From NCBI GenBank assembly GCA_020429545.1, contig JAGQLF010000001.1:1-36646 (forward strand): a DNA stretch of 36,646 bases. The letters run 5' to 3'. Positions within the stretch are counted from its first letter, which is position 1. Every line of letters begins with the position of its first letter. Below, in pieces: positions 3,831 through 36,646 of this stretch. The translations under genes were made by a program, and so were the position numbers. The notes below the pieces were generated by a model. The model did not search any database. It was given only the letters and a program-made list of their open reading frames with translations, and had not been told where the DNA came from. Source of the stretch: Candidatus Dojkabacteria bacterium (lineage in GTDB: Bacteria > Patescibacteriota > Dojkabacteria > J137).

Positions 3831-3972
3831 TAGGAAATCTTGCTTTATCAGCAGTATAGGCTTGTCAGTTCGAGTGAAATTTGCGATAGCAAATTTTGTA
3901 TCTAGAACTCACTTCTCGATACAATTCTACTTCTCCCGATAAATCGGGATCAGTAGAATCACTCGAAGTAAC
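3831..3972. repeat. structured intergenic repeat, family 1 (cloverleaf-like four-way junction), copy A
   Basis: P1 TTCGAGTG (3869-3876) / CACTCGAA (3960-3967) encloses hairpins 3877-3896, 3898-3922 and 3924-3959. A TAGGAAAT box lies 37 nt upstream. Confidence 0.75.
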
Positions 3973-4000
3973 ACAGCTAGGGACAGGAATTTATAATTTT

Positions 4001-12776: not shown

Positions 12777-12786
12777 TCATTGCAAT

Positions 12787-12872
12787 GCCGAAGTGGTGGA
12801 ACTGGTAGACACGCCGGACTCAAAATCCGGTGGAGGTTATACTTCGTGAGGGTTCGAGTCCCTCCTTCGGTA
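12787..12872 (+). tRNA. tRNA-Leu (anticodon CAA), class II
   Basis: Acceptor GCCGAAG/CTTCGGT (G1:U72 wobble). D-arm GTGGAACTGGTAGACAC. Anticodon arm CCGGA-CTCAAAA-TCCGG. Long variable arm. T-arm GAGGG-TTCGAGT-CCCTC. Discriminator A. CCA is not encoded. Confidence 0.9.
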
Positions 12873-13040
12873 TGAAAAATTTACTAAAAAAGTTAGCAGA
12901 GTTTTCATTATTAAATTAAGTCTAGAACCGACGGTTCGACTCTGATTTTCTGCACGAAGTAATAAGTGCATAGAAAATCGAGATCCTTTTTCAATAAGAT
13001 CATTGCGACGAAGTAGCAATATGATCGCATTGAAATAAGA

Positions 13041-13058
13041 GAGTCCCTCCTTCGGTAT
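13041..13058 (+). repeat. 18-nt direct copy of the tRNA-Leu 3' end (att-like scar)
   Basis: GAGTCCCTCCTTCGGTAT at 13041-13058 is identical to 12856-12873. It abuts the dnaB stop codon. The two copies bracket 167 nt of non-coding, hairpin-rich DNA. Confidence 0.85.
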
Positions 13059-20075: not shown

Positions 20076-20220
20076 TAGGAAATGGAACTGGCTATATTAC
20101 ATATGGTATGTAAGTTCGAGTGGCATAAATTTGACGAAGTCATAATTTATGATGTATCGAGAACTATACTATACATACTTCTCGATACAATCCTGATAAA
20201 TCAGGATCGCTCGAAGTGAC
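20076..20220. repeat. structured intergenic repeat, family 1 (cloverleaf-like four-way junction), copy B
   Basis: P1 TTCGAGTG/CGCTCGAA encloses three hairpins (20124-20151, 20154-20188, 20190-20207). It shares the upstream TAGGAAAT box at the same spacing as copy A. Confidence 0.75.
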
Positions 20221-20225
20221 GAGTA

Positions 20226-20837
20226 TTATTCAACACCATCCCTTCGCCTTAGAGAGTCTGATAAGGTTTGAGAAGACATATACTCAATACTACTTCCAGT
20301 TGGAATTCCTTTTGCTAATCTTGTAGTCTTTATATCTAAGTCCAAGTCTTTTATCTCGTTTGTTATGTATAAACTGGTCGAATCACCCTCCAGATTAGGA
20401 TTTAGACCAAAAATAATCTCTTTTATATCAGAATCAGATTTTAAACGACTCAAAAGCTCTCTTATTCTTATTTCGTCAGGTCCAATACCATTTACTGGTG
20501 ATATTATTCCATGCAATACGTGATATACACCTTTATACTCTCCTGTTTCCTCAATACTATAAAGTTCTAATGGAGTTTCTACAACTAGAATGATTGATTT
20601 ATCTCTTTGTCCATCATCACAAATTTCACATAAGCTTTCATTATCAGTTACATTAAAGCAGTTATCACAAAGTCTAATCTTTGCAGTTACATCTTTTAAA
20701 GAGTCCTCAAGTCTTGAAGCAAGTTTTCGATTTGATATAGAAAGATATAAAGCTATCCTATTAGATAGCTTTGGTCCCACTCCTGGTAGGGAGGAAAACC
20801 TTTCGCTTAAATCTCTAATGCTTCGGGGAAGAGCCAT
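20226..20837 (-). CDS. recR: recombination protein RecR
   Basis: HhH motif LPGVGPKLSNRIA. C4 zinc finger CDNC..CEIC. Toprim domain. Confidence 0.95.
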   Translation of the reverse strand: MALPRSIRDLSERFSSLPGVGPKLSNRIALYLSISNRKLASRLEDSLKDVTAKIRLCDNCFNVTDNESLCEICDDGQRDKSIILVVETPLELYSIEETGEYKGVYHVLHGIISPVNGIGPDEIRIRELLSRLKSDSDIKEIIFGLNPNLEGDSTSLYITNEIKDLDLDIKTTRLAKGIPTGSSIEYMSSQTLSDSLRRRDGVE

Positions 20838-28745: not shown

Positions 28746-30977
28746 TTAATTATCCTCCTCTTTCTTAGGTTGTTTTTTCACCTTTTGAATATCCTTTACC
28801 TTTGGATAATCTGGGTGTGCCCAGAAGTAACCATACTTTCCAGAACGTAGTAGATACTCATCTCCCTTATCTGTTTTTGGAGCTGGTCCAAAAAGCTCTG
28901 TTCTTTTCTTTTTTGTATATTCTAAAGGACGAGCATCTTTTACCTTTGGATAGTCTGGGTGTGCCCAGAATTCTCCAAATCTACCCTTCTTTAAAACATA
29001 ATCCCTTTCATCTTCAGTTTTTGGAGCTGGCATATATGTTTCTTGGAATTCTTTTGTTGTTGGTTTCTTTTCAAATTCTTCTTGAGATTCTCCATCCATA
29101 CTTAAAATTCCTTCACAATCTGGCCAACGTGAACATGTATAGAATCTTCCATACTTTCCTAATTTTATTAGCATTTTTGAATTACACTCAGGACATTTAA
29201 TATCTTTTGGTGCTTTTCCTAAAATTTTAAAATCATCTCTAGTTATAGTTTTTTCTGTTTCTTTCACATTTTTTGCAAATGGTTTATAGAAATCTTTCAA
29301 CATTTTTTTCCAGTCTAAACCTCCATCAGCAATAGTATCCAGATTGTCTTCCATCTCTGACGTAAAGTCATAGTCTACAATGTCTTTAAAGTGTGATACG
29401 AGAAGTTTATTTACAACGATTCCTGTATCTGTTGGAAATAGGTATCTTCCTTCTTTTTCTACATATTTTCTCGACAAAATTGTTGAGATAATTGATGAGT
29501 ATGTTGATGGTCTTCCAATTCCAAGCTCCTCAAGCTTTTTAATTAGTGATGCTTCAGAGTATCTTGCTGGTGGCTGTGTGAAGTGCTGATCAGCTCTAAT
29601 TTCTTTGTGGTAGAACTTATCTCCTTTTGTAACTTCTGGCAGTATTGTTTCGTTTTGCTTTTCAGCTTTTACTCTTAAATATCCATCAAACAAAACTCTT
29701 GTTCCAGTTGCTTTGAATTTATGCTTGCCAGCCACAGCTGTAATTGTCATTGTTTCTACTCTTGCAGGATTCATTTGTGAAGCAATTGCTCTATTTCTAA
29801 TTAGTCTATACAACTTTTTTTGTTCTTCTTTAAAAGATTTATCATCTTCTAAATCCATCTTTACTGGTCTAATTGCCTCGTGAGCTTCCTGTGCAGTTTT
29901 ACTTTTAGTACTGTACATTACAGGTTTTTCTGGCAAGTATTTATCTCCGTATTTACTTTTAATCTCTTTTCTTGCTGCGTCTATTGCCTGCTTTGATAGA
30001 GAAATAGAATCCGTTCTCATGTATGTAATGAATCCTGCTTCGTATAGCTTTTGAGCAACCATCATTGTTCTTTTTGAGCTAAATCCAAGTGTGTTTACAG
30101 CGGCTTGCTGCAATGTACTTGTAGTAAATGGTGGCTTTGGATTTCTTTTAGATTCTTTCTTAACAACATCTTCTACAATTAAATGTTCTTTTTCAATTTC
30201 TTTAATAATCTTTTCTGTTTCTTTTTTATCTTTTAGCCCTTTCTTTTTAGAATCGTAAATATATTCAAAAGGAATTAGCTTTGGATCAATTTTATCTTTC
30301 TTTTGCTCTTCATCATCTTCATCTTCTTTTTCTTTGATTTCTATTACGACTTTGTTACCTTTCTTATCTGTTGCATAACTGATTAAAGACCAATACTCAA
30401 CAGCTTCAAACTTGTTTCTCTCTTCTTCCTTTTCCACAACTAGTCTAAGGGCAACTGATTGAACTCTACCTGCGGACAAACCAAACATAATTTTTTTCCA
30501 TAGCACTGGAGAAAGTGTGTAACCAACAAGTCTGTCTAAAATTCTTCTCGCTTGTTGAGCATTAACTAAATTCATATCTACTTTTCTTGGATGTTCAATT
30601 GCCTCTTTTATTGCATCTTCAGTTATTTCACTAAAGACAATTCTTTCCACATCATGTCCTTTCTTTGGGTTACCGCCTTCAGTTAGTGCTCCTAGTTTTT
30701 GTGCAACATGCCAAGCAATTGCTTCACCTTCCCTATCTAAGTCGACAGCTAGTATTAATTTATCTGCTCCTTTATATGCTTGTTTTAATTCTTTTAAAGA
30801 CTTATCGTTTTTGACTTCGTAGTCAACCTTAAAGTCGTTATCAACATCAACACCCATTTTAGATTTAGGTAAATCTACAACATGGCCCTTAGATGCTTTA
30901 ACAACGTAATCTTTTCCAAGATACTTATTTATTGTTTTTGCCTTAGAAGGCGACTCTACAACTACTAATGACTTCAT
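28746..30977 (-). CDS. topA: DNA topoisomerase I
   Basis: Toprim N-terminus (VVVESPSKAKTI), DxD region (VDLDREGE), and active-site Tyr region ITYMRTDS. One C4 zinc ribbon (CPECNSK..CSRWPDC) plus two Cys-less C-terminal repeats. Confidence 0.95.
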   Translation of the reverse strand: MKSLVVVESPSKAKTINKYLGKDYVVKASKGHVVDLPKSKMGVDVDNDFKVDYEVKNDKSLKELKQAYKGADKLILAVDLDREGEAIAWHVAQKLGALTEGGNPKKGHDVERIVFSEITEDAIKEAIEHPRKVDMNLVNAQQARRILDRLVGYTLSPVLWKKIMFGLSAGRVQSVALRLVVEKEEERNKFEAVEYWSLISYATDKKGNKVVIEIKEKEDEDDEEQKKDKIDPKLIPFEYIYDSKKKGLKDKKETEKIIKEIEKEHLIVEDVVKKESKRNPKPPFTTSTLQQAAVNTLGFSSKRTMMVAQKLYEAGFITYMRTDSISLSKQAIDAARKEIKSKYGDKYLPEKPVMYSTKSKTAQEAHEAIRPVKMDLEDDKSFKEEQKKLYRLIRNRAIASQMNPARVETMTITAVAGKHKFKATGTRVLFDGYLRVKAEKQNETILPEVTKGDKFYHKEIRADQHFTQPPARYSEASLIKKLEELGIGRPSTYSSIISTILSRKYVEKEGRYLFPTDTGIVVNKLLVSHFKDIVDYDFTSEMEDNLDTIADGGLDWKKMLKDFYKPFAKNVKETEKTITRDDFKILGKAPKDIKCPECNSKMLIKLGKYGRFYTCSRWPDCEGILSMDGESQEEFEKKPTTKEFQETYMPAPKTEDERDYVLKKGRFGEFWAHPDYPKVKDARPLEYTKKKRTELFGPAPKTDKGDEYLLRSGKYGYFWAHPDYPKVKDIQKVKKQPKKEEDN
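28749..29033 (-). repeat. two ~144-nt C-terminal repeats within topA (GRFGEFWAHPDYPKVKD / GKYGYFWAHPDYPKVKD)
   Basis: The DNA blocks TTTACCTTTGGATA(A/G)TCTGGGTGTGCCCAGAA at 28795 and 28939 are 144 nt apart. Confidence 0.8.
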
Positions 30978-30987
30978 TTTTTATTAT

Positions 30988-32055
30988 CTAACTCAATGAA
31001 TATTTTCCATCAAGTCGTTTATTTAAAATACCCTGAATTTCTAATTCAAAGCAAATTTTTATAAGATTATTTATATCAATCCCGCTCTCTTGTCCCATCT
31101 CATCTATACTTTTTGGCTTTGAGGACAAAAGATCATAAATGCTTTTACCCTCTTTTGTCAAACCTATAGGCAATTTTCTCTGTATTTTTTGACTTTCTAA
31201 TCCAAAATCTTCTAATAAATCTCCACTAATATTGACTAACTTTGCAATGTTTTGTTTGATTAAATTATTATTTCCGATTATTGATTCTCTATAAATATCA
31301 CCGGGCACTGCATATACCAGTCTATTATATTCAAATGCTAAATTAGCAGTAATCAAAGAACCACTCTTTATTGGTGCTTCTGTAACTAATGTTGCTTTAG
31401 TCAAACCTGCAATTAAATGATTCCTTTGTGCAAACATACCAGGCAATACATTTTGATGCGGGAATGTTTCAGAAATAATGACACCATTAGAATCTAATAT
31501 CGATTTGTATAATGATCGATTAGACTCAGGAGTTGGGATATGTGCACTTGAAGCAAGCACAGCAACAGTTCTGCCATTATCTTTTAAAGTCTGTTTATGA
31601 ACTATTGAATCTATTCCAAGTGCCATACCACTTACAGTTGCAAATCCAGCACTGACTATATCTTTAGTAAACTCAGTTGTAATTCTTTTTCCATAGTCAG
31701 TATATTTTCTTGTTCCAACAATACTTATTGATTTATCCCAGTTTATAGATTCTAAATCTCCTAAATAGAACAGAACAGCAGGTGCATCAGGGATTTCTTT
31801 TAATAGCAATGGGTAATTATCTTGCCAAATAAACACCATTGATACCTTATATTTATCAATATATGAATCCATTCTATTCATATCTGCCTTAGCTTTTGAT
31901 AATGCTTTAATAATCTTTAGATTCAAATCTGAAATACTTTTATTCTCAAATAAAGAATCAATATCTCCAAACTTACTGAGTAATTTTTTAAAACTAGATG
32001 AACCTATTCCCTTTTGTAGCAAGAGAGATAAGCTAAATTTAGCTAACTTATCCAT
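30988..32055 (-). CDS. dprA: DNA processing protein DprA (Smf)
   Basis: Rossmann-like core with IVGTRKYTDYGK and GMALGIDSIVHKQ. C-terminal winged-helix-like domain. Adjacent to topA, as in many bacteria. Confidence 0.9.
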   Translation of the reverse strand: MDKLAKFSLSLLLQKGIGSSSFKKLLSKFGDIDSLFENKSISDLNLKIIKALSKAKADMNRMDSYIDKYKVSMVFIWQDNYPLLLKEIPDAPAVLFYLGDLESINWDKSISIVGTRKYTDYGKRITTEFTKDIVSAGFATVSGMALGIDSIVHKQTLKDNGRTVAVLASSAHIPTPESNRSLYKSILDSNGVIISETFPHQNVLPGMFAQRNHLIAGLTKATLVTEAPIKSGSLITANLAFEYNRLVYAVPGDIYRESIIGNNNLIKQNIAKLVNISGDLLEDFGLESQKIQRKLPIGLTKEGKSIYDLLSSKPKSIDEMGQESGIDINNLIKICFELEIQGILNKRLDGKYSLS

Positions 32056-32069
32056 TTTGTATAATATAA

Positions 32070-33827
32070 TTAAATACTTTGTAAAAAATCTTTTAACATT
32101 GGGGCGATATAATAGCCTCCTCCTCCATATTGTTGGAAGAAGCTAAAAGTGTAGGTTTTACCATCTTTGTCAAAAGTACCAACAATCCAACCATGAACCC
32201 TTTCTACAAATACTCCGTTCATATTTTCTAAAGTTTCGGCTGACCCAGTTTTTGCATGAATATTATAGTCTTTAAGATCAGAAAAGAATCTTGCCACAAC
32301 ACTTCCATTATTGTATGCCACACCATACATACCTTCTTTGATAGCAGTACTTATACTTTCAGGCATATTAACAGTTTCTATGATTTGAGGTTGATTATAG
32401 AACTCTTCTGTACCATCATTATGTTTTATCTTATATATAAAATGTGGTTTTAATTTTTTTCCACCATTTTGAATCATTGAAACTGCAACTGCCATTTGTA
32501 TAGGTGATACTGTAACAGCCCCTTGTCCAATAACAGCATTGCAAGTATCTCCATCAAACCAACCATCACCTGTTACTTCTAATTTTCGCGTTGGAGAATC
32601 CATAACACCCTTAGATTCACTTTCAAATTCAATGCCTGTGGGTGAACCAATACCAAATTCTTGTGCATCAGAAACTAGGTACGAAAATCCTTTCTCTTCG
32701 CTCATCTTTAAAGCGTAATTACAAAAATACAAGTTGCTTGATTTAATTAATGCATTTTCAAGATTAAGTTCACCATAAAAATTTTTACCATATTCGCAAA
32801 ATTCAAAGCCTCCTCCTAGGTTCAAACATTGATTCGAAAAAAAAGTTGATGTTTTTTTGATAATATTATTATTCAACAAAGAATAAGACGTTATCAGTTT
32901 AAAAATAGAACCTGGTGTATAAGATCCAACAATAGCTTTATCAATAAGAGGTGTGGTTCTTGAAGATTGTAAATCACTAAAAGAATCAGCGCTGATACCC
33001 CTGACTATCGTATTAACATCAAAACCTGGGTAAGACACCATAGCTTTAATCTCCCCTGTCTCAGAATCCATTATTACTCCTGCACCTCCAGCTGCATTGT
33101 TCCTGTTATTATACTCAGCTAACCATCTATAAAGTTGGTCCTGCCAGCTCGCATCTATCGTTAAATAGATTGAATCACCTTCTATAGGTGGTATTGAAAT
33201 CTCAGATAAGCCGTCATGAATTATCTGACCTGGTATACCACGTAAATTCTCCTCATAAAGTTTTTCTAATCTGTACTTGCCAATAAATTCGTCTGTTTTA
33301 TATTCTCCCTCCTTAACTGTTTCTTCATCCACAATTCCCGTATATCCTGTAATATGAGCAAACTCATATGGTAGTGAATAATGCCTAATAAACCTGGACC
33401 TTACTTCTAAATTGGGGATATCTTTAAAAACTTGTTCCATTTTAGATACTTGAGAAGTATCTAATAGCGACAATACTCTTTGATCCCATTGAAGATTTGT
33501 GTCTATTTCTTCTAATAACTTTTCAATATCAATGTCATTGTTATCAAAATACTCTAATAAATCAGAATAATCCTTTTCCATTTCTTTGGAGTATTTCAAA
33601 TAAATATCAAAAGCTTTTACATCTTGAGCCAAAACTCTACCTACCGAATCTAAAATTTTTCCTCTTGGAGCTAGTTCAACTTCTTTATCTACAACAAACT
33701 GCAATGATGTTGAATTAAGAACATTACCTTCCATAAGCTGGCTAAAAGCCGCAAAAATTACTACTATAGTTATTCCTACTATATAGAAATATTGAATTGG
33801 AAACGATAAAAGTTTCGTATAATTCAT
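32070..33827 (-). CDS. mrdA: penicillin-binding protein 2 (class B transpeptidase)
   Basis: N-terminal TM anchor. SxxK (GSIFK), SxN (KSSN) and KTG (AKTGSAE) motifs at the expected spacing. Confidence 0.88.
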   Translation of the reverse strand: MNYTKLLSFPIQYFYIVGITIVVIFAAFSQLMEGNVLNSTSLQFVVDKEVELAPRGKILDSVGRVLAQDVKAFDIYLKYSKEMEKDYSDLLEYFDNNDIDIEKLLEEIDTNLQWDQRVLSLLDTSQVSKMEQVFKDIPNLEVRSRFIRHYSLPYEFAHITGYTGIVDEETVKEGEYKTDEFIGKYRLEKLYEENLRGIPGQIIHDGLSEISIPPIEGDSIYLTIDASWQDQLYRWLAEYNNRNNAAGGAGVIMDSETGEIKAMVSYPGFDVNTIVRGISADSFSDLQSSRTTPLIDKAIVGSYTPGSIFKLITSYSLLNNNIIKKTSTFFSNQCLNLGGGFEFCEYGKNFYGELNLENALIKSSNLYFCNYALKMSEEKGFSYLVSDAQEFGIGSPTGIEFESESKGVMDSPTRKLEVTGDGWFDGDTCNAVIGQGAVTVSPIQMAVAVSMIQNGGKKLKPHFIYKIKHNDGTEEFYNQPQIIETVNMPESISTAIKEGMYGVAYNNGSVVARFFSDLKDYNIHAKTGSAETLENMNGVFVERVHGWIVGTFDKDGKTYTFSFFQQYGGGGYYIAPMLKDFLQSI

Positions 33828-34846
33828 AAGAATATCAAATCTTTAACTTCTAAATTCTCTAAAAGGTCTGGGGAGTTATTAATTATTTCTAATCCCATCA
33901 CTGTAGCCTTGATAGGATCTGTAATTTGTAACTTCAGTTTAACATGCTTTTTAATTTCGTTAGAAAATTCTTTTATCAGAAATAGTCCTCCAGAAACAGT
34001 TATACCTTCTTCTAAAAGCTGATCTAACTCTGATGTCGATGCTTTTTCTATCATTTTCTTTAACTCAACTATTACAACAGAGAATTCTTCTATGATTACA
34101 TTTGTGATCTCAGATTGATAAACTTCAAACTCTACTGGTAGTCCGTCTTTCAAATTCTTACCTTTTAGTTGAACTATCTTTTTCTTTGAAGATGAAAAGT
34201 CCATCTCACTAATAACTTTGTTTATAGATTTTAGGGAGATATCAATAAGATACTTATCCTTTATATAATCTTGAACTGACGAAAGTATATTTACTGAGCC
34301 AAAGTAAAATGTGTTGTCATAACAGATTTCATTGTTAATAATTATCAACAAATCTGTAATTGAGTATCCAATTTTACATACAATTCCTGACCCTATTTCT
34401 GAATCACTATACAAAGCTGCTACACCCTCATTTACAAAAGTTACTGAACTGACTCCAAATGATTCAAGTGCATCTGTATAGGCTGAAATTTCAACCTCTG
34501 AGGATGTTGAGTGTATGCTTGCAACTATGTTTGGCCTAAAGAATTTAGTTTTCCTACCCATTTGTTCTAAAATCACGGCTAGCTCATGATGTAAAAATAG
34601 CTCAGAAGCTTTATAGTCATGGATTGTTCCATTTATTACAGGAGAAATCTTTCTATACTTTTTTGTTGAGTATTTAGTTACAGCCTCTTCCCCAATAAAT
34701 ATTACTTCGTCATAATCTTTAGAAACACATATAACTGATGGCTTAGTTTCAAATAGATTGATGCTAGGTGCATAGACTTTAAACTGATCTGTTCCAAACT
34801 CAATATAAATATATTCTGCATTATTTTTACGAAAATTTTTGAACAC
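33824..34846 (-). CDS. divergent MreB-like actin-fold protein
   Basis: Collinear with MreB (YIEFGTDQF for the phosphate-1 DLGT motif; SGGLFLIKEF..ITDPIKATVMG for GGGALL..DPL..V.G). The phosphate-2 DIGGGTT is replaced by KIGYSIT. GTG start. 4-nt overlap with the PBP2 gene. Confidence 0.6.
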   Translation of the reverse strand: MFKNFRKNNAEYIYIEFGTDQFKVYAPSINLFETKPSVICVSKDYDEVIFIGEEAVTKYSTKKYRKISPVINGTIHDYKASELFLHHELAVILEQMGRKTKFFRPNIVASIHSTSSEVEISAYTDALESFGVSSVTFVNEGVAALYSDSEIGSGIVCKIGYSITDLLIIINNEICYDNTFYFGSVNILSSVQDYIKDKYLIDISLKSINKVISEMDFSSSKKKIVQLKGKNLKDGLPVEFEVYQSEITNVIIEEFSVVIVELKKMIEKASTSELDQLLEEGITVSGGLFLIKEFSNEIKKHVKLKLQITDPIKATVMGLEIINNSPDLLENLEVKDLIFL

Positions 34847-34855
34847 TTTAAAATG

Positions 34856-34897
34856 AGTAAATAGTAATTAGTGTTGAGTATTGAGTAATTAGTTACT
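34856..34897. repeat. 6 x 7-nt phased array (AGTAAAT AGTAATT AGTGTTG AGTATTG AGTAATT AGTTACT)
   Basis: AGT at 34856, 34863, 34870, 34877, 34884 and 34891. Starts 10 nt from the MreB-like start codon. Confidence 0.85.
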
Positions 34898-34908
34898 ATA
34901 GTCTTGAA

Positions 34909-34943
34909 CACTAAATGCTCAGTACTAATTACTGGCTACTTTT
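34909..34943. repeat. 5 x 7-nt phased array (CACTAAA TGCTCAG TACTAAT TACTGGC TACTTTT), complementary type
   Basis: RCT at 34910, 34917, 34924, 34931 and 34938. ACTAATTACT (34924-34933) is the exact complement of AGTAATTAGT (34884-34893). Confidence 0.85.
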
Positions 34944-34990
34944 ACAAATTATATATGAAGATGTCTATATGAGGTAGTAATTTAAAAATA

Positions 34991-35063
34991 AGCTGAAACT
35001 GGGAATTGAACCCAGGACCTCACCCTTACCATGGGTGCGCTCTACCATCTGAGCTATTCCAGC
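34991..35063 (-). tRNA. tRNA-Thr (anticodon GGU)
   Basis: Minus strand: GCTGGAA TA GCTC AGATGGTA GAGC G CACCC ATGGTAA GGGTG AGGTC CTGGG TTCAATT CCCAG TTTCAGC + discriminator T. Cloverleaf with one G:U in the acceptor. CCA is not encoded. Confidence 0.9.
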
Positions 35064-35195
35064 ACTTACTTAAATTAACTTGTCAATTTAGTCTCGCCGA
35101 AGCTTAAGCGAAGGCGGACTATTCCAGCATTTATTACGAGTTAAAATTGTCAACTTAGTCTCGCCGTAGCTTCAGCGAAGGCGGGCTATTCCAGC
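35064..35195 (-). repeat. two tandem 66-nt units, each starting (minus sense) with the tRNA-Thr 5' decamer GCTGGAATAG followed by a GC-rich hairpin
   Basis: Units are 35064-35129 and 35130-35195. The hairpin is TAGTC-T-CGCC / GGCG-GACTA with loop GAAGCTTAAGCGAA or GTAGCTTCAGCGAA. They lie directly upstream of tRNA-Thr(GGU). Confidence 0.85.
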
Positions 35196-35254
35196 TTTTA
35201 TGAATCTGGAAGATTATACAATATTAGATCTTTTGAATGTGAGAATAAAAAATA

Positions 35255-35337
35255 TCCGGAGAGAAGGATTTGAACCTCCGTAGTCCTGGGACGCCTGATT
35301 TACAGTCAGGTGCGATTGACCGCTCCGCCATCTCCGG
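35255..35337 (-). tRNA. tRNA-Tyr (anticodon GUA), class II, with C1:G72
   Basis: Minus strand: CCGGAGA TG GCG GAGCGGTCAAT CGC A CCTGA CTGTAAA TCAGG CGTCCCAGGACTAC GGAGG TTCAAAT CCTTC TCTCCGG A. U8 and U33 are in register. 83 nt. CCA is not encoded. Confidence 0.85.
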
Positions 35338-35342
35338 AAACA

Positions 35343-35420
35343 AGTACCAAGTACTGAGTTTTTAGTACTTAGTTATTTTATTAATTTCTAAGTACTCAGT
35401 ACTAATTACTAAAAACTGAA
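35343..35420. repeat. inverted pair of 5 x 7-nt arrays forming a long hairpin between tRNA-Thr(UGU) and tRNA-Tyr
   Basis: Left arm: AGT at 35343/50/57/64/71. Right arm: (A/T)CT at 35387/94/401/408/415. AGTACTTAG (35364-35372) pairs with CTAAGTACT (35388-35396). AGTACTG (35350-35356) pairs with CAGTACT (35397-35403). Confidence 0.85.
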
Positions 35421-35424
35421 CTGG

Positions 35425-35497
35425 AGCTGGAACTGGGACTCGAACCCAGGACCGACTGTTTACAAAACAGTTGCTCTACCAACTGAGCTATTCCAGC
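35425..35497 (-). tRNA. tRNA-Thr (anticodon UGU)
   Basis: Minus strand: GCTGGAA TA GCTC AGTTGGTA GAGC A ACTGT TTTGTAA ACAGT CGGTC CTGGG TTCGAGT CCCAG TTCCAGC + T. Perfect acceptor stem. Confidence 0.92.
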
Positions 35498-35562
35498 AAT
35501 CTAATTGTTAAATCTACGTTTTTCCTTTCTGTTTATCACTTAAAAAACCAACTGCTCAATAA

Positions 35563-35604
35563 GGTCATCATTTTATAAACGTAGTGCAATAAAATGATTT
35601 GACC
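35563..35604. other. long AT-rich hairpin (9 bp + 2-nt bulge + 5 bp)
   Basis: GGTCATCATTTTAT-aaacgtagtgca-ATAAAATGATTTGACC. Located between the tRNA-Thr fragment and tRNA-Thr(UGU). Confidence 0.6.
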
Positions 35605-35607
35605 GCA

Positions 35608-35706
35608 TTAGTCCCGACAATGTCGGGGAGCTATTCCAGCACTTACTTAAATTAACTTGTCAATTTAGTCTCGCCGTAGCTTCAGCGAAGGCGGACTATT
35701 CCAGCA
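35608..35706 (-). repeat. 13-nt tRNA-Thr 5' fragment fused to a hairpin, plus a third 66-nt GCTGGAATAG-hairpin unit
   Basis: 35628-35676 is identical over 49 nt to 35051-35099, i.e. the first 13 nt of tRNA-Thr(GGU) plus its upstream flank. About 80 nt aligns with 2 mismatches. The tRNA body is replaced by TCCCCGAC-att-GTCGGGA. Confidence 0.85.
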
Positions 35707-35717
35707 TAACTGTATCG

Positions 35718-35788
35718 AGTAATGAATTTTTAGTACTTAGTTATTTTGTTAACTTCTAAGTACTCAGTACTAACTACTCTGTACTAAT
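35718..35788. repeat. second copy of the AGTACT-word hairpin (4 + 5 heptamer units)
   Basis: 35727-35778 is near-identical to 35359-35410 (TTTTTAGTACTTAGTTATTTTrTTAAyTTCTAAGTACTCAGTACTAAyTACT). The right arm has (A/T)CT at 35755/62/69/76/83. Confidence 0.85.
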
Positions 35789-35803
35789 TTAAAGTGCTCA
35801 TCA

Positions 35804-35833
35804 AGTATAGCAAAAGGTTATAAAACTTTGCAA
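35804..35833 (-). promoter_or_regulatory. candidate promoter of the minus-strand tRNA cluster (TTGCAA-N18-TGcTATACT)
   Basis: Minus strand: -35 at 35828-35833, -10 at 35804-35809, TG at 35811-35812. Confidence 0.45.
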
Positions 35834-35856
35834 AATATTTAATTTTGATATAAAAT
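35828..35856 (+). promoter_or_regulatory. candidate rpmB promoter (TTGCAA-N17-TAAAAT, overlapping TGATATAAA)
   Basis: The -35 hexamer is palindromic (TTGCAA) and shared with the divergent tRNA promoter. -10 at 35851-35856. ATG at 35886. Confidence 0.45.
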
Positions 35857-35885
35857 CTACACGTTATTTAAACAATTTCAAAGAA

Positions 35886-36125
35886 ATGGCACGAGTTTGC
35901 GAAATATCAGGAAGAAAAACAAGAACAGGAAATAGAATTCAGCACAGAAGAGGTAAGTCTGGATCTGGAGGAGCGTGGAATTATAAGGCACCTAAGACAA
36001 AAAGAACTTGGAAACCTAATCTAAGAAAGGTTAAAGTTAACATTAACGGCACTACAAAAAGAATCAAAGTTAGCATGAAAGAGTACAAAAAAATGCGAAA
36101 AGAATCTGAAGCTCTAGCTAACTAA
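35886..36125 (+). CDS. rpmB: 50S ribosomal protein L28
   Basis: MARVCEISGRKTRTGNRIQHRRGKSGSGG...KPNLRKVKV matches the L28 core. 79 aa. Confidence 0.9.
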   Translation: MARVCEISGRKTRTGNRIQHRRGKSGSGGAWNYKAPKTKRTWKPNLRKVKVNINGTTKRIKVSMKEYKKMRKESEALAN

Positions 36126-36143
36126 TTGACTCTACTTTCATAA

Positions 36144-36192
36144 GACTATAAACTCAGTACTAAATACTCAATATTCATTATTAACTACTCTT
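36144..36192. repeat. 7 x 7-nt phased array (GACTATA AACTCAG TACTAAA TACTCAA TATTCAT TATTAAC TACTCTT)
   Basis: AYT cores at 36145, 36152, ... 36187 (five ACT, two ATT). The array ends 1 nt before ATG 36194. Confidence 0.7.
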
Positions 36193-36193
36193 A

Positions 36194-36646
36194 ATGATTT
36201 TCTACGGTAGAAATATAGTAATAGAAGCACTTAAATCAAACCATCAAGTGTCTAAAGTTTCTATTCAAGAAGGGTCAGATAACAACGAAAAGATAGGTCT
36301 AATTGTGAAACTAGCAAAATCTTTAAATGTACCAATTTCATATCTAGATAGAAGAGAAATTTCTAAGGTCACCAGTTCTGAAGAACACCAAGGAGTTTGT
36401 TGCGAAGTTAAGTTTAATGAATCTAAATTAAAAGATTTAATTACCGGCGAGGATAATCAATCATTTATATATATTTCCACTGCGACTTTTGAACACAATA
36501 TTGGAGCTATTACTAGATCAGCCGAAGTTGCTGGAGTTAATGGTGTAATCATTCCAACAAATGCAGAAATCACTCCTACTGTAGCAAAAACTTCTGCAGG
36601 TGCGATATTTCATATACCAATTATTAGATTATCCGTTTTTAATGCT
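36194..36646 (+). CDS. TrmH/SpoU-family RNA 2'-O-methyltransferase (RlmB-like), 3'-truncated by the window end
   Basis: Open frame from ATG 36194 to the window end (151 codons), not in the ORF track because it has no stop. It has an N-terminal GRNIVIEAL substrate-binding domain, an HQGV motif, and the start of the SPOUT domain (HNIGAITRSAEVAGVNGVIIP). Confidence 0.8.
   Translation, partial: MIFYGRNIVIEALKSNHQVSKVSIQEGSDNNEKIGLIVKLAKSLNVPISYLDRREISKVTSSEEHQGVCCEVKFNESKLKDLITGEDNQSFIYISTATFEHNIGAITRSAEVAGVNGVIIPTNAEITPTVAKTSAGAIFHIPIIRLSVFNA

Follow-up and report, generated by a model that had tools for sequence, protein, structure and literature searches.

The window, a 36,646-nt stretch of Candidatus Dojkabacteria DNA (positions 1 to 36,646 of contig JAGQLF010000001.1), carries on its minus strand a cluster of two tRNA-Thr genes and one tRNA-Tyr gene. 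The sequence GCTGGAATAG, with which both tRNA-Thr genes begin, occurs six times on that strand between 35054 and 35705, against 0.08 expected from shuffled sequences, in which six copies were never reached. The first-pass annotation had counted the same six copies and assigned two of them to the genuine genes, and both points hold. Three of the others open units of 65–67 nt (type 1; units A, B, and C) and one opens a unit of 40 nt (type 2). The features of the locus are as follows:

34991–35063, minus: genuine tRNA-Thr(GGU), presumed target of units B and C (ARAGORN; Rfam tRNA, 65.4 bits; 99% identity in sister species G001)
35064–35128, minus: unit C (type 1), with tRNA nucleotides 1–10, hairpin 1 (35089–35121), and a 32-nt tail ending exactly at the tRNA +1
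35129–35195, minus: unit B (type 1), with tRNA nucleotides 1–11, hairpin 1 (35156–35188), and a diverged 34-nt tail
35213–35220, minus: extended -10 box TGTATAAT of the conserved tRNA-Thr(GGU) promoter, upstream of unit B
35254–35338, minus: tRNA-Tyr(GUA), member of the conserved Thr-Tyr-Thr cluster, outside the repeat system (ARAGORN; Rfam; relatives)
35422–35497, minus: genuine tRNA-Thr(UGU), presumed target of unit A and the type 2 unit (ARAGORN; Rfam; relatives)
35498–35600, minus: AT-rich filler of 103 nt that separates the type 2 unit from tRNA-Thr(UGU), missing from G001
35601–35640, minus: type 2 unit, with tRNA nucleotides 1–13, hairpin 2 CCCGACATTGTCGGG (35613–35627), ACTAATG, and CGGTC
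35641–35705, minus: unit A (type 1), with tRNA nucleotides 1–10, hairpin 1 (35666–35698), and a tail
35711–35721, minus: 11-mer TACTCGATACA, which departs at one position from TTCTCGATACA, a motif in the inner stem of a dispersed cloverleaf repeat
35804–35833, minus: promoter of sigma-70 type (TTGCAA-18-TATACT) for the tRNA-Thr(UGU) operon, with conservation extending to G001, G002, and G003

The four extra 5′ ends in the window are not genes. ARAGORN and Infernal/Rfam call only the three tRNAs listed above, and neither calls a tRNA at the extra copies even at E ≤ 10; as had been proposed from the letters alone, the units lack the T arm and the 3′ acceptor strand of the RF00005 cloverleaf. At this threshold tRNA was also the sole Rfam family found at the locus and at six hairpin-rich loci of other phyla. 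Elsewhere in the 0.96-Mb genome GCTGGAATAG has only four matches, which are unrelated and apparently lie in coding-like sequence. Directly upstream of unit B stands a TTCCAG that was considered as a permuted 3′ acceptor strand; it is a lone 6-mer.

The type 1 units each join a tRNA-derived fragment to a bulged hairpin (TAGTCCGCC / GGCG-A-GACTA), and the type 2 unit carries a second hairpin (TCCCCGAC-att-GTCGGGA), both as first described. The three units reported as 66 nt long are present, but their start-to-start spacing is 67, 65, and 65 nt. An 80-nt duplication with two mismatches (35051–35130 versus 35628–35707) was likewise borne out, at 98% identity and with both mismatches in the hairpin loop; put in terms of units, C is 98% identical to A plus the next 13 nt. 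The hairpin of unit B equals that of unit A except at nucleotide 11, while its tail differs by about 50%, as it does from the tail of unit C, and ends in TTAACTCGTAATAAAT, similar to the tail end of a type 1 unit at tRNA-Lys. Across A, B, and C the tRNA-derived 10 nt and the hairpin are perfectly retained, with no mismatch in 30 nt of tRNA-derived fragment. Such retention beside diverging tails could reflect selection acting on fragment and hairpin together, and hence function, but could also stem from gene conversion or from independent insertions. Predicted RNA folding energies of the units are ordinary (z -0.5 to -0.9; -2.4 for the second hairpin), and support for the hairpins therefore comes from compensating stem changes among copies rather than from energy. 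Two further candidate features were rejected: a -35 box read from the TTGACA found in every unit tail, which has no -10 box at 16–18 nt and is followed by the tRNA start after 17–19 nt, and an alternative RNA fold UUCGCUG/CGGCGAG within hairpin 1, which is lost in copies with other stems.

The type 2 unit reads as a shortened pseudo-tRNA 5′ part, in which hairpin 2 stands in place of the anticodon arm and CGGTC matches the variable loop of tRNA-Thr(UGU); type 2 units at tRNA-Lys and tRNA-Asp share this architecture. The AT-rich filler that follows occupies the position at which full-length elements have a GIY-YIG gene, and tblastn with GIY-YIG proteins found no ORF remnant in it. On the far side of unit A, TACTCGATACA ties this unit weakly to the cloverleaf repeat family, a link that, at 11 nt with one mismatch, is suggestive only. 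Unit A and the type 2 unit are placed between the TTGCAA-18-TATACT promoter and tRNA-Thr(UGU). Unit B, the leftmost copy at its site, retains the original promoter and leader, and since the TGTATAAT box lies upstream of it, units B and C would be transcribed as a leader of about 150 nt of tRNA-Thr(GGU). The same box is found 11–24 nt ahead of tRNA-Thr(GGU) in G001, G002, and G003.

The units prove to be lineage-specific insertions. In the same-genus genomes G001–G003, and likewise in members of the family, conservation extends over the Thr(UGU)-Tyr-Thr(GGU) cluster, its two promoters, and rpmB and mreB on its flanks, whereas the gap between tRNA-Tyr and tRNA-Thr(GGU) measures 190 nt here and 8–49 nt in relatives. 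In the sister species G001 both tRNA-Thr sites are empty; G002 has one homologous unit, at Thr(UGU), which is longer than unit A and consists of a 17-nt tRNA copy, a related hairpin, and the tail end TTGACAAT..TAAGT. Unit C was not found in G001, G002, or G003, and blastn of the two-unit region against 60 relatives returned short hairpin-sized matches only and no whole-unit homologue. Four sites filled in the present genome (G000) are empty in G001 (Thr-UGU, Thr-GGU, Lys-CUU, and Ser-GCU), a presence/absence polymorphism at fixed sites between close relatives such as marks homing endonucleases. G001 in turn decorates another set of four tRNAs, and a cassette at tRNA-Asp is common to G000, G001, G015, and G052. 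Comparison of G000 with G001 at Ser-GCU and Thr-GGU places the ancestral leader in the left copy.

Nor are the units a peculiarity of tRNA-Thr, as had first been supposed: the self-copy pattern is genome-wide, directional, and linked to small GIY-YIG genes. About 12 of 35 tRNA genes have upstream copies of their own 5′ end and seven have downstream copies of their own 3′ end, which occur upstream in a single case; about half of all tRNA genes bear partial self-copies of some kind. Counting cross-hits between the two tRNA-Thr genes, 23 self-5′ copies lie within 800 nt upstream and three downstream (all Thr/Thr cross-hits), with two on the opposite strand. All of these tRNA-end copies are joined to conserved modules, of which there are only a few. 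The duplicated 5′ segments vary in length (10, 11, 13, 17, 27 nt, and more) and often start exactly at the tRNA +1, reaching further upstream at tRNA-Asp (13 nt) and at tRNA-Asn of G002 (7 nt). The exact start at +1 is not what a purely DNA-level accident predicts, and it counts against reading the units as insertion footprints.

Both hairpins are conserved, dispersed modules with compensating stems. Hairpin 1, defined by its conserved loop CGCTRAAGCTWCG, has 19 copies in the genome and occurs in many phyla; the loop pattern [TA]CGCNNAAGCNNCG gave 19 copies against none in a reversed control. Stem pairs 1–4 are paired in 19, 19, 19, and 18 of the 19 copies, with C-G at pair 1 in every copy and two to five pair types at pairs 2–4. 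For eleven copies the distance to a tRNA is at most 500 nt, where 0.6 such copies would be expected (P = 2e-12), and the tRNA-linked copies each follow the 5′ end of their own tRNA (Thr, Lys-UUU, Lys-CUU, Asp, and Ser-GCU here; Asn and Thr in G002/G003), the junction falling at tRNA position 10/11 for two tRNA-Lys genes, Asp, and Ser, and for Asn in relatives. Because eight of the 19 copies here and many in other phyla lack tRNA-derived ends, hairpin 1 is a general repeat module strongly enriched at tRNA genes and not a tRNA-specific device; hairpins lacking such ends were one of the two outcomes that the first-pass annotation had named as refuting its reading. A literature search with several spellings of the loop sequence returned no match.

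Hairpin 2 (CCCGA-N3-6-TCGGG; 21 copies) substitutes for the anticodon arm, and the type 2 units outside this locus retain up to 27–44 nt of tRNA sequence. The type 2 signature was found in 17 of 221 genomes of the class (32 matches versus two in the control); across the phylum it was found in 45 of 401, an upper bound inflated by hairpins with a 5-nt centre that may be genuine anticodon arms, e.g., tRNA-Ala(GGC) in L168. Arm-swapped pseudo-tRNAs recur in another class of the phylum, where a Saccharibacteria contig has the same layout: a pseudo-5′ part with hairpin 2, an ORF, the tRNA, a pseudo-3′ part with hairpin 2, and hairpin 1. The two hairpins also form the arms of the dispersed cloverleaf repeat, which is represented by about 40 half-sites with repeats in tandem or mosaic arrangements, and they flank five genes for single-domain GIY-YIG proteins of 82–99 aa.

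Both here and in other genomes, GIY-YIG genes are found at tRNA genes together with these hairpins. The five ORFs match PF01541 only (E 1e-10 to 1e-19), with intact GIY, YIG, Arg, and Glu motifs as in single-domain proteins of about 90–100 aa; all lie outside the locus, and four abut tRNA genes. GIY-YIG ORFs of the genome include those at C40 7773–8036, C77 2491–2688, and C55 28686–28871. Among 15 genomes, 16 of 16 tRNA-adjacent ORFs are co-oriented with the tRNA, in several genomes the ORF at the tRNA-Asp and tRNA-Lys loci is bracketed by hairpin 2, and one full-length dispersed cloverleaf copy contains a GIY-YIG ORF. Since tblastn found no such ORF or remnant within 35064–35705, the gene occurring at other tRNA loci only, the GIY-YIG link of the window units is an association at those other loci. 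The best PDB matches of the ORFs are the UPF0213 proteins BH0048 (E 1e-13) and EF2693 (E 5e-9), and an NCBIfam scan matched no specific model. The GIY-YIG tree is weakly resolved, with support only for the Lys-UUU group (90/97), and does not prove tRNA-specific lineages. Nothing specific emerged from the literature on partial tRNAs or on GIY-YIG and tRNA in Patescibacteria.

We propose that the units are probably gene-less insertion footprints of a selfish hairpin-repeat family that is tied to small single-domain GIY-YIG nucleases (Ssn/UPF0213-like) and prefers tRNA genes. The insertion would enter a tRNA gene at a helix boundary, hairpin 1 at nucleotide 10/11, where the D stem starts, and hairpin 2 in the place of the anticodon arm, and would duplicate the part of the tRNA between +1 and the point of entry. 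The original 5′ end would then stay with its former promoter, a dead stub joined to the hairpin, while a complete tRNA would be re-formed downstream. The putative nuclease may act on hairpins or cloverleaves in single-stranded DNA of the highly transcribed tRNA genes, with the duplication arising through repair by template switching or gap filling. Direct repeats of 10–17 nt common to both tRNA-Thr genes could subsequently recombine or slip, a process that may have carried a copy of a unit from tRNA-Thr(UGU) over to tRNA-Thr(GGU) and built the B-C tandem, and that could also remove units precisely. The family shows a patchy distribution and fast turnover, with its signature in 17 of 221 genomes and differing decorated tRNAs in G001. 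The first-pass annotation, in offering scars of insertion or recombination, or a hairpin element targeting the D-arm region, had come close to this evidence, given the absence of units from the G001 sites and the 10/11 joins at other tRNAs.

A function in the leader RNA is an unlikely reading. Here the tRNA-like 5′ strand and hairpin would be a processing signal, a decoy for RNase P or another nuclease, or an alternative partner of the tRNA 3′ acceptor strand that tunes maturation. The units do lie between conserved promoters and tRNAs in the same orientation, their fragments start exactly at +1 and match the tRNA at 10 of 10 positions despite diverging tails, and the stems change in compensating fashion. 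However, a conserved decoy or processing signal, in line with one suggestion of the first-pass annotation, is not supported, as conservation is missing even between species of one genus: G001, with 99%-identical tRNAs and the same promoters, has no units, and the decorated tRNAs differ by species. The same hairpins also occur far from any tRNA and in many phyla, the folding energies are ordinary and no Rfam family is matched, and an upstream copy of the acceptor strand is likelier to disturb folding than to aid it. We consider it rather improbable that a purely local accident is at work, in which replication slippage or unequal crossing-over doubled a hairpin already present in the leader, along with tRNA-Thr nucleotides 1–10, and neither mobile element nor nuclease took part. 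A head-to-tail array with short direct repeats is of a kind that expands by slippage, and the 80-nt match between units A and C reaches 98% identity; yet the same hairpin with the same 10/11 junction stands ahead of five further tRNA species, in each case with that tRNA's 5′ sequence, the genome-wide 5′/3′ pattern is left unexplained, and the empty sites of relatives contain no leader hairpin from which to start. Slippage is accepted only as a secondary amplification step.

Decay of tandem tRNA-Thr duplicates into ordinary pseudogenes, later invaded by hairpins, would account for pseudo-copies that are co-linear with the 5′ part of the tRNA, as well as for the 27–44 nt retained by some type 2 units, but is very unlikely: no relative has additional intact tRNA-Thr genes at these positions, the other refuting outcome that the first-pass annotation had named, or elsewhere in the cluster, the fragments end sharply at helix boundaries instead of decaying gradually, their lack of any mismatch is unlike old pseudogenes, and across different tRNAs and phyla a given arm is replaced by one and the same module. 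tRNA genes are also classical integration sites at which integration leaves partial tRNA copies (PMC9897764), and the targeting of a tRNA gene, the re-formation of an intact gene, and the outward displacement of a fragment are all shared with att duplications. Nonetheless, attL/attR-type scars of an integrase-mediated element or prophage at tRNA-Thr are hardly credible. Such scars duplicate the 3′ part of the gene through a tyrosine integrase on a kilobase-scale element, whereas the duplications here are of 5′ parts upstream and of 3′ parts downstream, around inserts of 55–300 nt or nuclease cassettes of about 0.5 kb; at this locus it is the 5′ part, no integrase gene is present among the ORFs of 30000–36646, and the pattern recurs at one third of all tRNA genes. 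Mis-joined repeats in a metagenome-assembled genome are exceedingly improbable as well. The draft does comprise 121 contigs, and three further assemblies with an identical L28 gene all stop at window position 35764, in a nearby heptad array and short of the units, while an exact MreB protein look-up for assemblies spanning the locus returned no record. Against this, units B and C are distinct enough for unique assembly, the A/C repeat is only 80 nt long, and the same architecture stands on many contigs and in independent genomes, complete ones included.

For the insertion footprints proposed here, the Ssn nucleases with their NTS/SRM hairpin repeats are the closest known system. These are single-domain GIY-YIG proteins of 94 aa whose genes are flanked by hairpin repeats found genome-wide, and they cleave single-stranded DNA a few nucleotides 5′ of the hairpin; tRNA goes unmentioned in the paper (Chenal et al., 2025; PMC11893778). 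Shared with the present family are the single domain of about 90 aa, a gene flanked on both sides by a GC-rich, genome-scattered hairpin, hairpins that are oriented and have conserved flanking bases, and a host with transformation machinery (DprA in this genome); the core of hairpin 2 (ATCCCGA..TCGGGAT) moreover resembles the NTS/dRS3 core (ATTCCCG..CGGGAAT). Unlike in the Ssn system, the SRM consensus HGTCWY..YYVSBRH..WNVSBRG..RNCYNB has no match in the whole genome and one in the reversed control, the ORFs, putative members of the cd10448 clade, are closest in solved structures to UPF0213, and the genes overlap tRNA genes, the hairpin replacing the anticodon arm of partial tRNA copies. The second hairpin here also combines a conserved loop with free stems, whereas the NTS has a conserved stem. 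What is new relative to Ssn is the differing hairpin consensus and the targeting of tRNA, which is undescribed.

Other repeat systems match in part. We know of no REP that duplicates tRNA 5′ ends. REP/BIME sequences, GTAG- or CGTC-tagged palindromes paired with IS200/IS605-like RAYT transposases (PMC3733652), are likewise short, intergenic, GC-rich, multicopy hairpins in mosaics and tandem arrays with compensating stems, on which a small dedicated enzyme is believed to act in their single-stranded form. The palindromes here are many-copy, short, intergenic, and arranged in mosaics but show no constant tag across copies, and the associated enzyme appears to be a GIY-YIG nuclease rather than an HUH/Y1 transposase; a REP-like GTAG 5′ of hairpin 1 at tRNA junctions is simply tRNA positions 7–10, and copies away from tRNAs lack it. 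Phage T4 SegB is a free-standing GIY-YIG homing endonuclease encoded in a tRNA cluster (PMC2330249), and nuclease-stimulated segmental amplification of tRNA regions has been described (PMC13096335). SegB resembles the present case in placing a GIY-YIG gene among tRNA genes, in co-inheriting flanking tRNA sequence, and in cutting in a tRNA gene, as is proposed here. Enzymes of its type carry a DNA-binding domain apart from the catalytic one and work on double-stranded DNA, between phages that infect the same cell, while the ORFs here are bare catalytic domains; hairpin modules and arm-swapped pseudo-tRNAs are absent from that system, and no endonuclease gene lies inside the inserted segment at 35064–35705. 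Bacterial MITEs, finally, are also short, non-autonomous, structured, multicopy intergenic inserts related to gene-carrying copies. The units differ from them in having no terminal inverted repeats, in hairpin arms that are modular and exchangeable, and in target duplications that are long and variable (10–27 nt or more), unlike the fixed target-site duplication of a transposase.

More broadly, and tentatively, we suggest that tRNA genes of Patescibacteria, and possibly of other phyla, may be preferred targets of undescribed selfish elements driven by bare GIY-YIG (Ssn-like) single-strand nucleases. Such nucleases might recognise cloverleaf or hairpin DNA, cut at helix junctions, and leave the gene rebuilt with exchanged arms (D arm to hairpin 1, anticodon arm to hairpin 2) and with pseudo-tRNA halves on both sides of an intact copy. 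The idea makes a testable substrate prediction, namely single strands of tRNA genes cut at the D-arm and anticodon-arm junctions, and would offer a way in which streamlined genomes could remodel their tRNA leaders rapidly. It also carries a warning for annotation, as fragments and arm-swapped tRNA copies can be mis-called. There are thousands of single-domain GIY-YIG proteins (Ssn and UPF0213), and to our knowledge their biological role is known only in Neisseria. If true, the proposal would give this large group a second biological role beyond the control of transformation, and would represent a natural, ongoing route to split, partly duplicated, or remodelled tRNA genes and a possible model for the origin of split or fragmented ones.

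The start shared by both tRNA-Thr genes, GCTGGAATAG, occurs six times at the locus, as the first-pass annotation had stated, where 0.08 copies are expected by chance, and the 0.96-Mb genome holds only four further matches, all in unrelated contexts. A size of about 1 Mb and a G+C content of 32% are compatible with a member of the Patescibacteria. ARAGORN and Infernal call only the three real tRNAs there, confirming that the extra copies are not tRNAs. In minus-strand order the locus reads:

35833-35804, minus: promoter TTGCAA-18-TATACT
after the promoter: heptad-repeat block
between this block and unit A: TACTCGATACA
35705-35641, minus: unit A (type 1: tRNA-Thr 5' end, hairpin 1 and tail)
35640-35601, minus: 40-nt unit, a shortened type 2
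between the type 2 unit and tRNA-Thr(UGU): 103-nt filler
35497-35422, minus: tRNA-Thr(UGU)
between tRNA-Thr(UGU) and tRNA-Tyr: heptad block
35338-35254, minus: tRNA-Tyr
35220-35213, minus: TGTATAAT, followed by a 17-nt leader and unit B
35195-35129, minus: unit B (type 1)
35128-35064, minus: unit C (type 1)
35063-34991, minus: tRNA-Thr(GGU)

The initial description was correct except that the units measure 67, 65 and 65 nt, not 66 nt. The duplication of about 80 nt noted there also stands: units A and C, each with its next 13 nt, are 98% identical, and unit B is about 65% identical to both. The genes around the cluster are rpmB and one encoding a SpoU methylase (plus strand) and mreB, mrdA, dprA and topA (minus strand). 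Phased 7-nt AGTACTN/TAGTAMT repeat blocks, arranged as inverted pairs (34855-34940, 35343-35420, 35712-35785 and 36146-36190), border each of the cluster's tRNAs as well as the rpmB-rlmB spacer, and three independent public assemblies with an identical L28 gene all stop at 35764, within a heptad-repeat block.

Comparison with relatives shows that the units were inserted and do not belong to the conserved tRNA-Thr locus. The Thr-Tyr-Thr cluster is kept in three species of the same genus (G001, G002 and G003) and in other genera of the family. In G001, the closest species, tRNA-Thr is 99% identical, yet the TATACT promoter lies about 20 nt from tRNA-Thr(UGU), versus about 300 nt here, and TGTATAAT lies 11 nt from tRNA-Thr(GGU), versus about 150 nt here. 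Both sites are likewise empty in G003, and G002 carries one homologous, longer unit 5' of tRNA-Thr(UGU), in which 17 nt copied from the tRNA are followed by a related hairpin (TCCCGC-TTCGCTAATGCTACG-TGGGA) and a tail that ends in TTGACAATTAAAAGTTTAGCTAAGT. No relative compared has intact additional tRNA-Thr genes at these positions, which the first-pass annotation had named as the sign of simple pseudogenisation. At tRNA-Ser(GCU), the TAGTATAAT promoter and leader of G001 precede a fragment in the genome under study instead of the intact tRNA. The ancestral leader thus remains with the outermost (left) fragment, both at this gene and at unit B, which argues that the insert entered the gene body and that an intact gene was re-formed on its far side. 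Turnover is fast, since only four of 28 tRNAs examined in G001 are decorated, the set differs from that of the genome under study, and the Lys-CUU and Ser-GCU sites are empty.

The hairpins within the units are dispersed repeat modules. The hairpin 1 loop motif, [TA]CGCNNAAGCNNCG, has 19 copies in the genome and none in a reversed control. The four pairs closing the loop are formed in 19, 19, 19 and 18 of the 19 copies; the closing pair is always C-G and the next three are built from two to five pair types, which makes the stem changes compensatory. Of the 19 copies, 11 have a tRNA gene within 500 nt, where 0.6 would be expected. The 17-mer CTTCGCTGAAGCTACGG occurs in at least 120 contigs from Bacteroidota, Acidobacteriota, Verrucomicrobiota, Planctomycetota, Patescibacteria and others, a count to be read against about 70 matches expected by chance alone; nearly all of the observed hits have complementary stems on either side, many are tandem, and a 3' ACAGG/ACAAG tag is usual. 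No Rfam family covers the loop motif, and no mention of it was found in the searchable literature. In other phyla (L093, L107, L108, L109 and L122, from Bacteroidales and other MAGs) the loop recurs in tandem about every 30-36 nt, also without an Rfam family, and one such array reaches directly to tRNA-Met +1.

Every co-oriented upstream copy of hairpin 1 is preceded by the first 10-11 nt of its own tRNA (type 1), with the following fused starts:

tRNA-Lys(UUU): GGTTCGGTAGC (two cases)
tRNA-Lys(CUU): GGTCTGGTAGC
tRNA-Asp: GGGGTGGTAG
tRNA-Ser(GCU): GGAGTGGTACC
tRNA-Thr: GCTGGAATAG

The same junction is found at tRNA-Asn in G002 and G003. Common to the aligned type 1 units are TAG-Y, the hairpin, a bulged A and, on the 3' side, the flank YAAAsTCRA, which resembles CACTCGAA, the outer-stem motif of a dispersed cloverleaf repeat. 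Type 2 modules keep tRNA nt 1 to about 27, exactly replace the anticodon arm with hairpin 2 (CCCGA-N3-6-TCGGG; 21 copies in the genome, none in the control), and continue with the variable loop and first T-stem bases before diverging. Hairpin 2 itself resembles an anticodon arm with a GC-rich stem; a 5-nt centre gives a legitimate 7-nt anticodon loop (tRNA-Ala GGC in L168, G063), and most repeat copies have a 4-nt centre, leaving the loop one base short. A third module, CTYAAGAGATTCTTGMAGAG..AGCGATGCTAGAAGATCTTAG, lies within or beside the D loop in several pseudo-tRNAs: those of Glu (two genes), Lys-CUU and Ser in the genome under study, of Val in G002 and of Arg in G001. Both tRNA-Gln genes (contigs C6 and C84) have 17 nt of their own 5' end 138-150 nt upstream, followed by a different shared insert, YTCAATAAGCAGCYTTGAAG..., a fourth module type.

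The pattern is directional and genome-wide. Searching 800 nt on each side of 35 tRNA genes for their own first 10 nt (at most one mismatch) returned 23 copies upstream on the same strand, three downstream and two on the other strand, tRNA-Thr cross-hits counted; the three downstream matches are all cross-hits between the two tRNA-Thr genes, and about 12 of the 35 genes are affected. The mirror test with the last 12 nt gave seven matches downstream, including that of tRNA-Leu at 12786-12873 of the window, and one upstream. At this tRNA-Leu(CAA) (12786-13058), one of seven such genes, the last 18 nt are repeated 173 nt downstream.

The repeat system also has a physical link to GIY-YIG genes. In the genome, five ORFs, 82-99 aa long, match the GIY-YIG catalytic domain alone:

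one ORF: between a type 2 pseudo-tRNA-Asp and tRNA-Asp, stop codon inside the tRNA
one ORF: abutting tRNA-Met
two ORFs: 3' of tRNA-Lys(CUU) and tRNA-Glu, each with a tRNA 3'-end copy downstream
one ORF: in the central loop of a full-length cloverleaf repeat copy

In outline, the cloverleaf repeat reads TGTCAGTTCGAGTG-arm-GTATCGAGAA...TTCTCGATACA-arm-CACTCGAAGTGACA. About 40 half-sites of it were counted, and its arms come from the same hairpin pool, hairpins 1 and 2 included; copies in the window lie at 3850-3990 (hairpin 2 as one arm) and 20100-20240. Across the class, 17 of 221 genomes contain the type 2 signature GAGC-N1-3-hairpin 2 (32 matches versus two in the control). Its loci almost always include a tRNA (Lys, Asp, Arg or His), and most also have a GIY-YIG ORF overlapping hairpin 2. 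All 16 tRNA-adjacent ORFs collected are co-oriented with their tRNA, the ORF coming first in the Asp, Arg, His, Ile and Met types and the order being tRNA, ORF, pseudo-3' part in the Lys, Glu, Ser and Ala types. In a weak tree of these ORFs, the Lys-UUU type grouped at 90/97. A Saccharibacteria contig (L140, 2300-2800) has the full layout: a pseudo-5' part carrying hairpin 2, the ORF, an intact tRNA-Ile, a pseudo-3' part that again carries hairpin 2, and finally hairpin 1. Contig C40 of the genome under study is arranged likewise at tRNA-Asp. The TAG stop codon of the L140 ORF is tRNA-Ile nt 8-10, and on C40 (7716-8200) the ORF reads into tRNA-Asp and stops at the D-loop/D-stem TAG, making gene and tRNA 5' end inseparable.

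The units are lineage-specific inserts in which duplicated tRNA ends are fused to conserved dispersed hairpin modules. Helix boundaries (+1, 10/11, 13, 26/27 and 43/44) are where the breakpoints cluster, and most fragments start exactly at tRNA +1. We hypothesize that the substrate of the nuclease is single-stranded DNA folded into hairpins or cloverleaves, and that tRNA genes would be frequent victims because they are highly transcribed and cloverleaf-forming when single-stranded. If the damage is repaired by switching template to another hairpin module, or by filling the gap of a staggered break, the sequence from +1 to the break would be duplicated, and only events re-forming an intact tRNA would survive. 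Since G002 shares the tRNA-Thr(UGU) unit, that one is probably older; recombination through the 15 nt common to both genes would then have copied it to tRNA-Thr(GGU), which would account for the 98% identity of units A and C. Unit B would be either an older copy or an independent insert, and the same direct repeats would permit precise unit loss, as in G001. The fragment and hairpin are perfectly preserved beside diverged tails, which could reflect gene conversion or some selection.

T4 SegB offers a functional analogy to GIY-YIG genes at tRNAs: this GIY-YIG homing endonuclease sits in a tRNA cluster and is capable of driving segmental amplification (PMC2330249, PMC13096335). The same logic as here is seen in Ssn proteins (cd10448), 94-aa single-domain GIY-YIG proteins that act as site-specific single-stranded-DNA nucleases, cut a few nt 5' of a hairpin and modulate natural transformation, and for which the authors point to likeness with insertion sequences and REP/RAYT (Chenal et al. 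2025, PMC11893778). The NTS core of that system is similar to hairpin 2; however, the published SRM pattern has no match in the genome under study, the ORFs here are closest to UPF0213 structures, and tRNA is unmentioned in the Ssn paper (PMC11893778). A DprA gene (30988-32055; PF02481, E 4e-70) lies 3 kb from the tRNA-Thr locus, and the transformation pathway would be relevant if the nucleases act on incoming single-stranded DNA, like Ssn.
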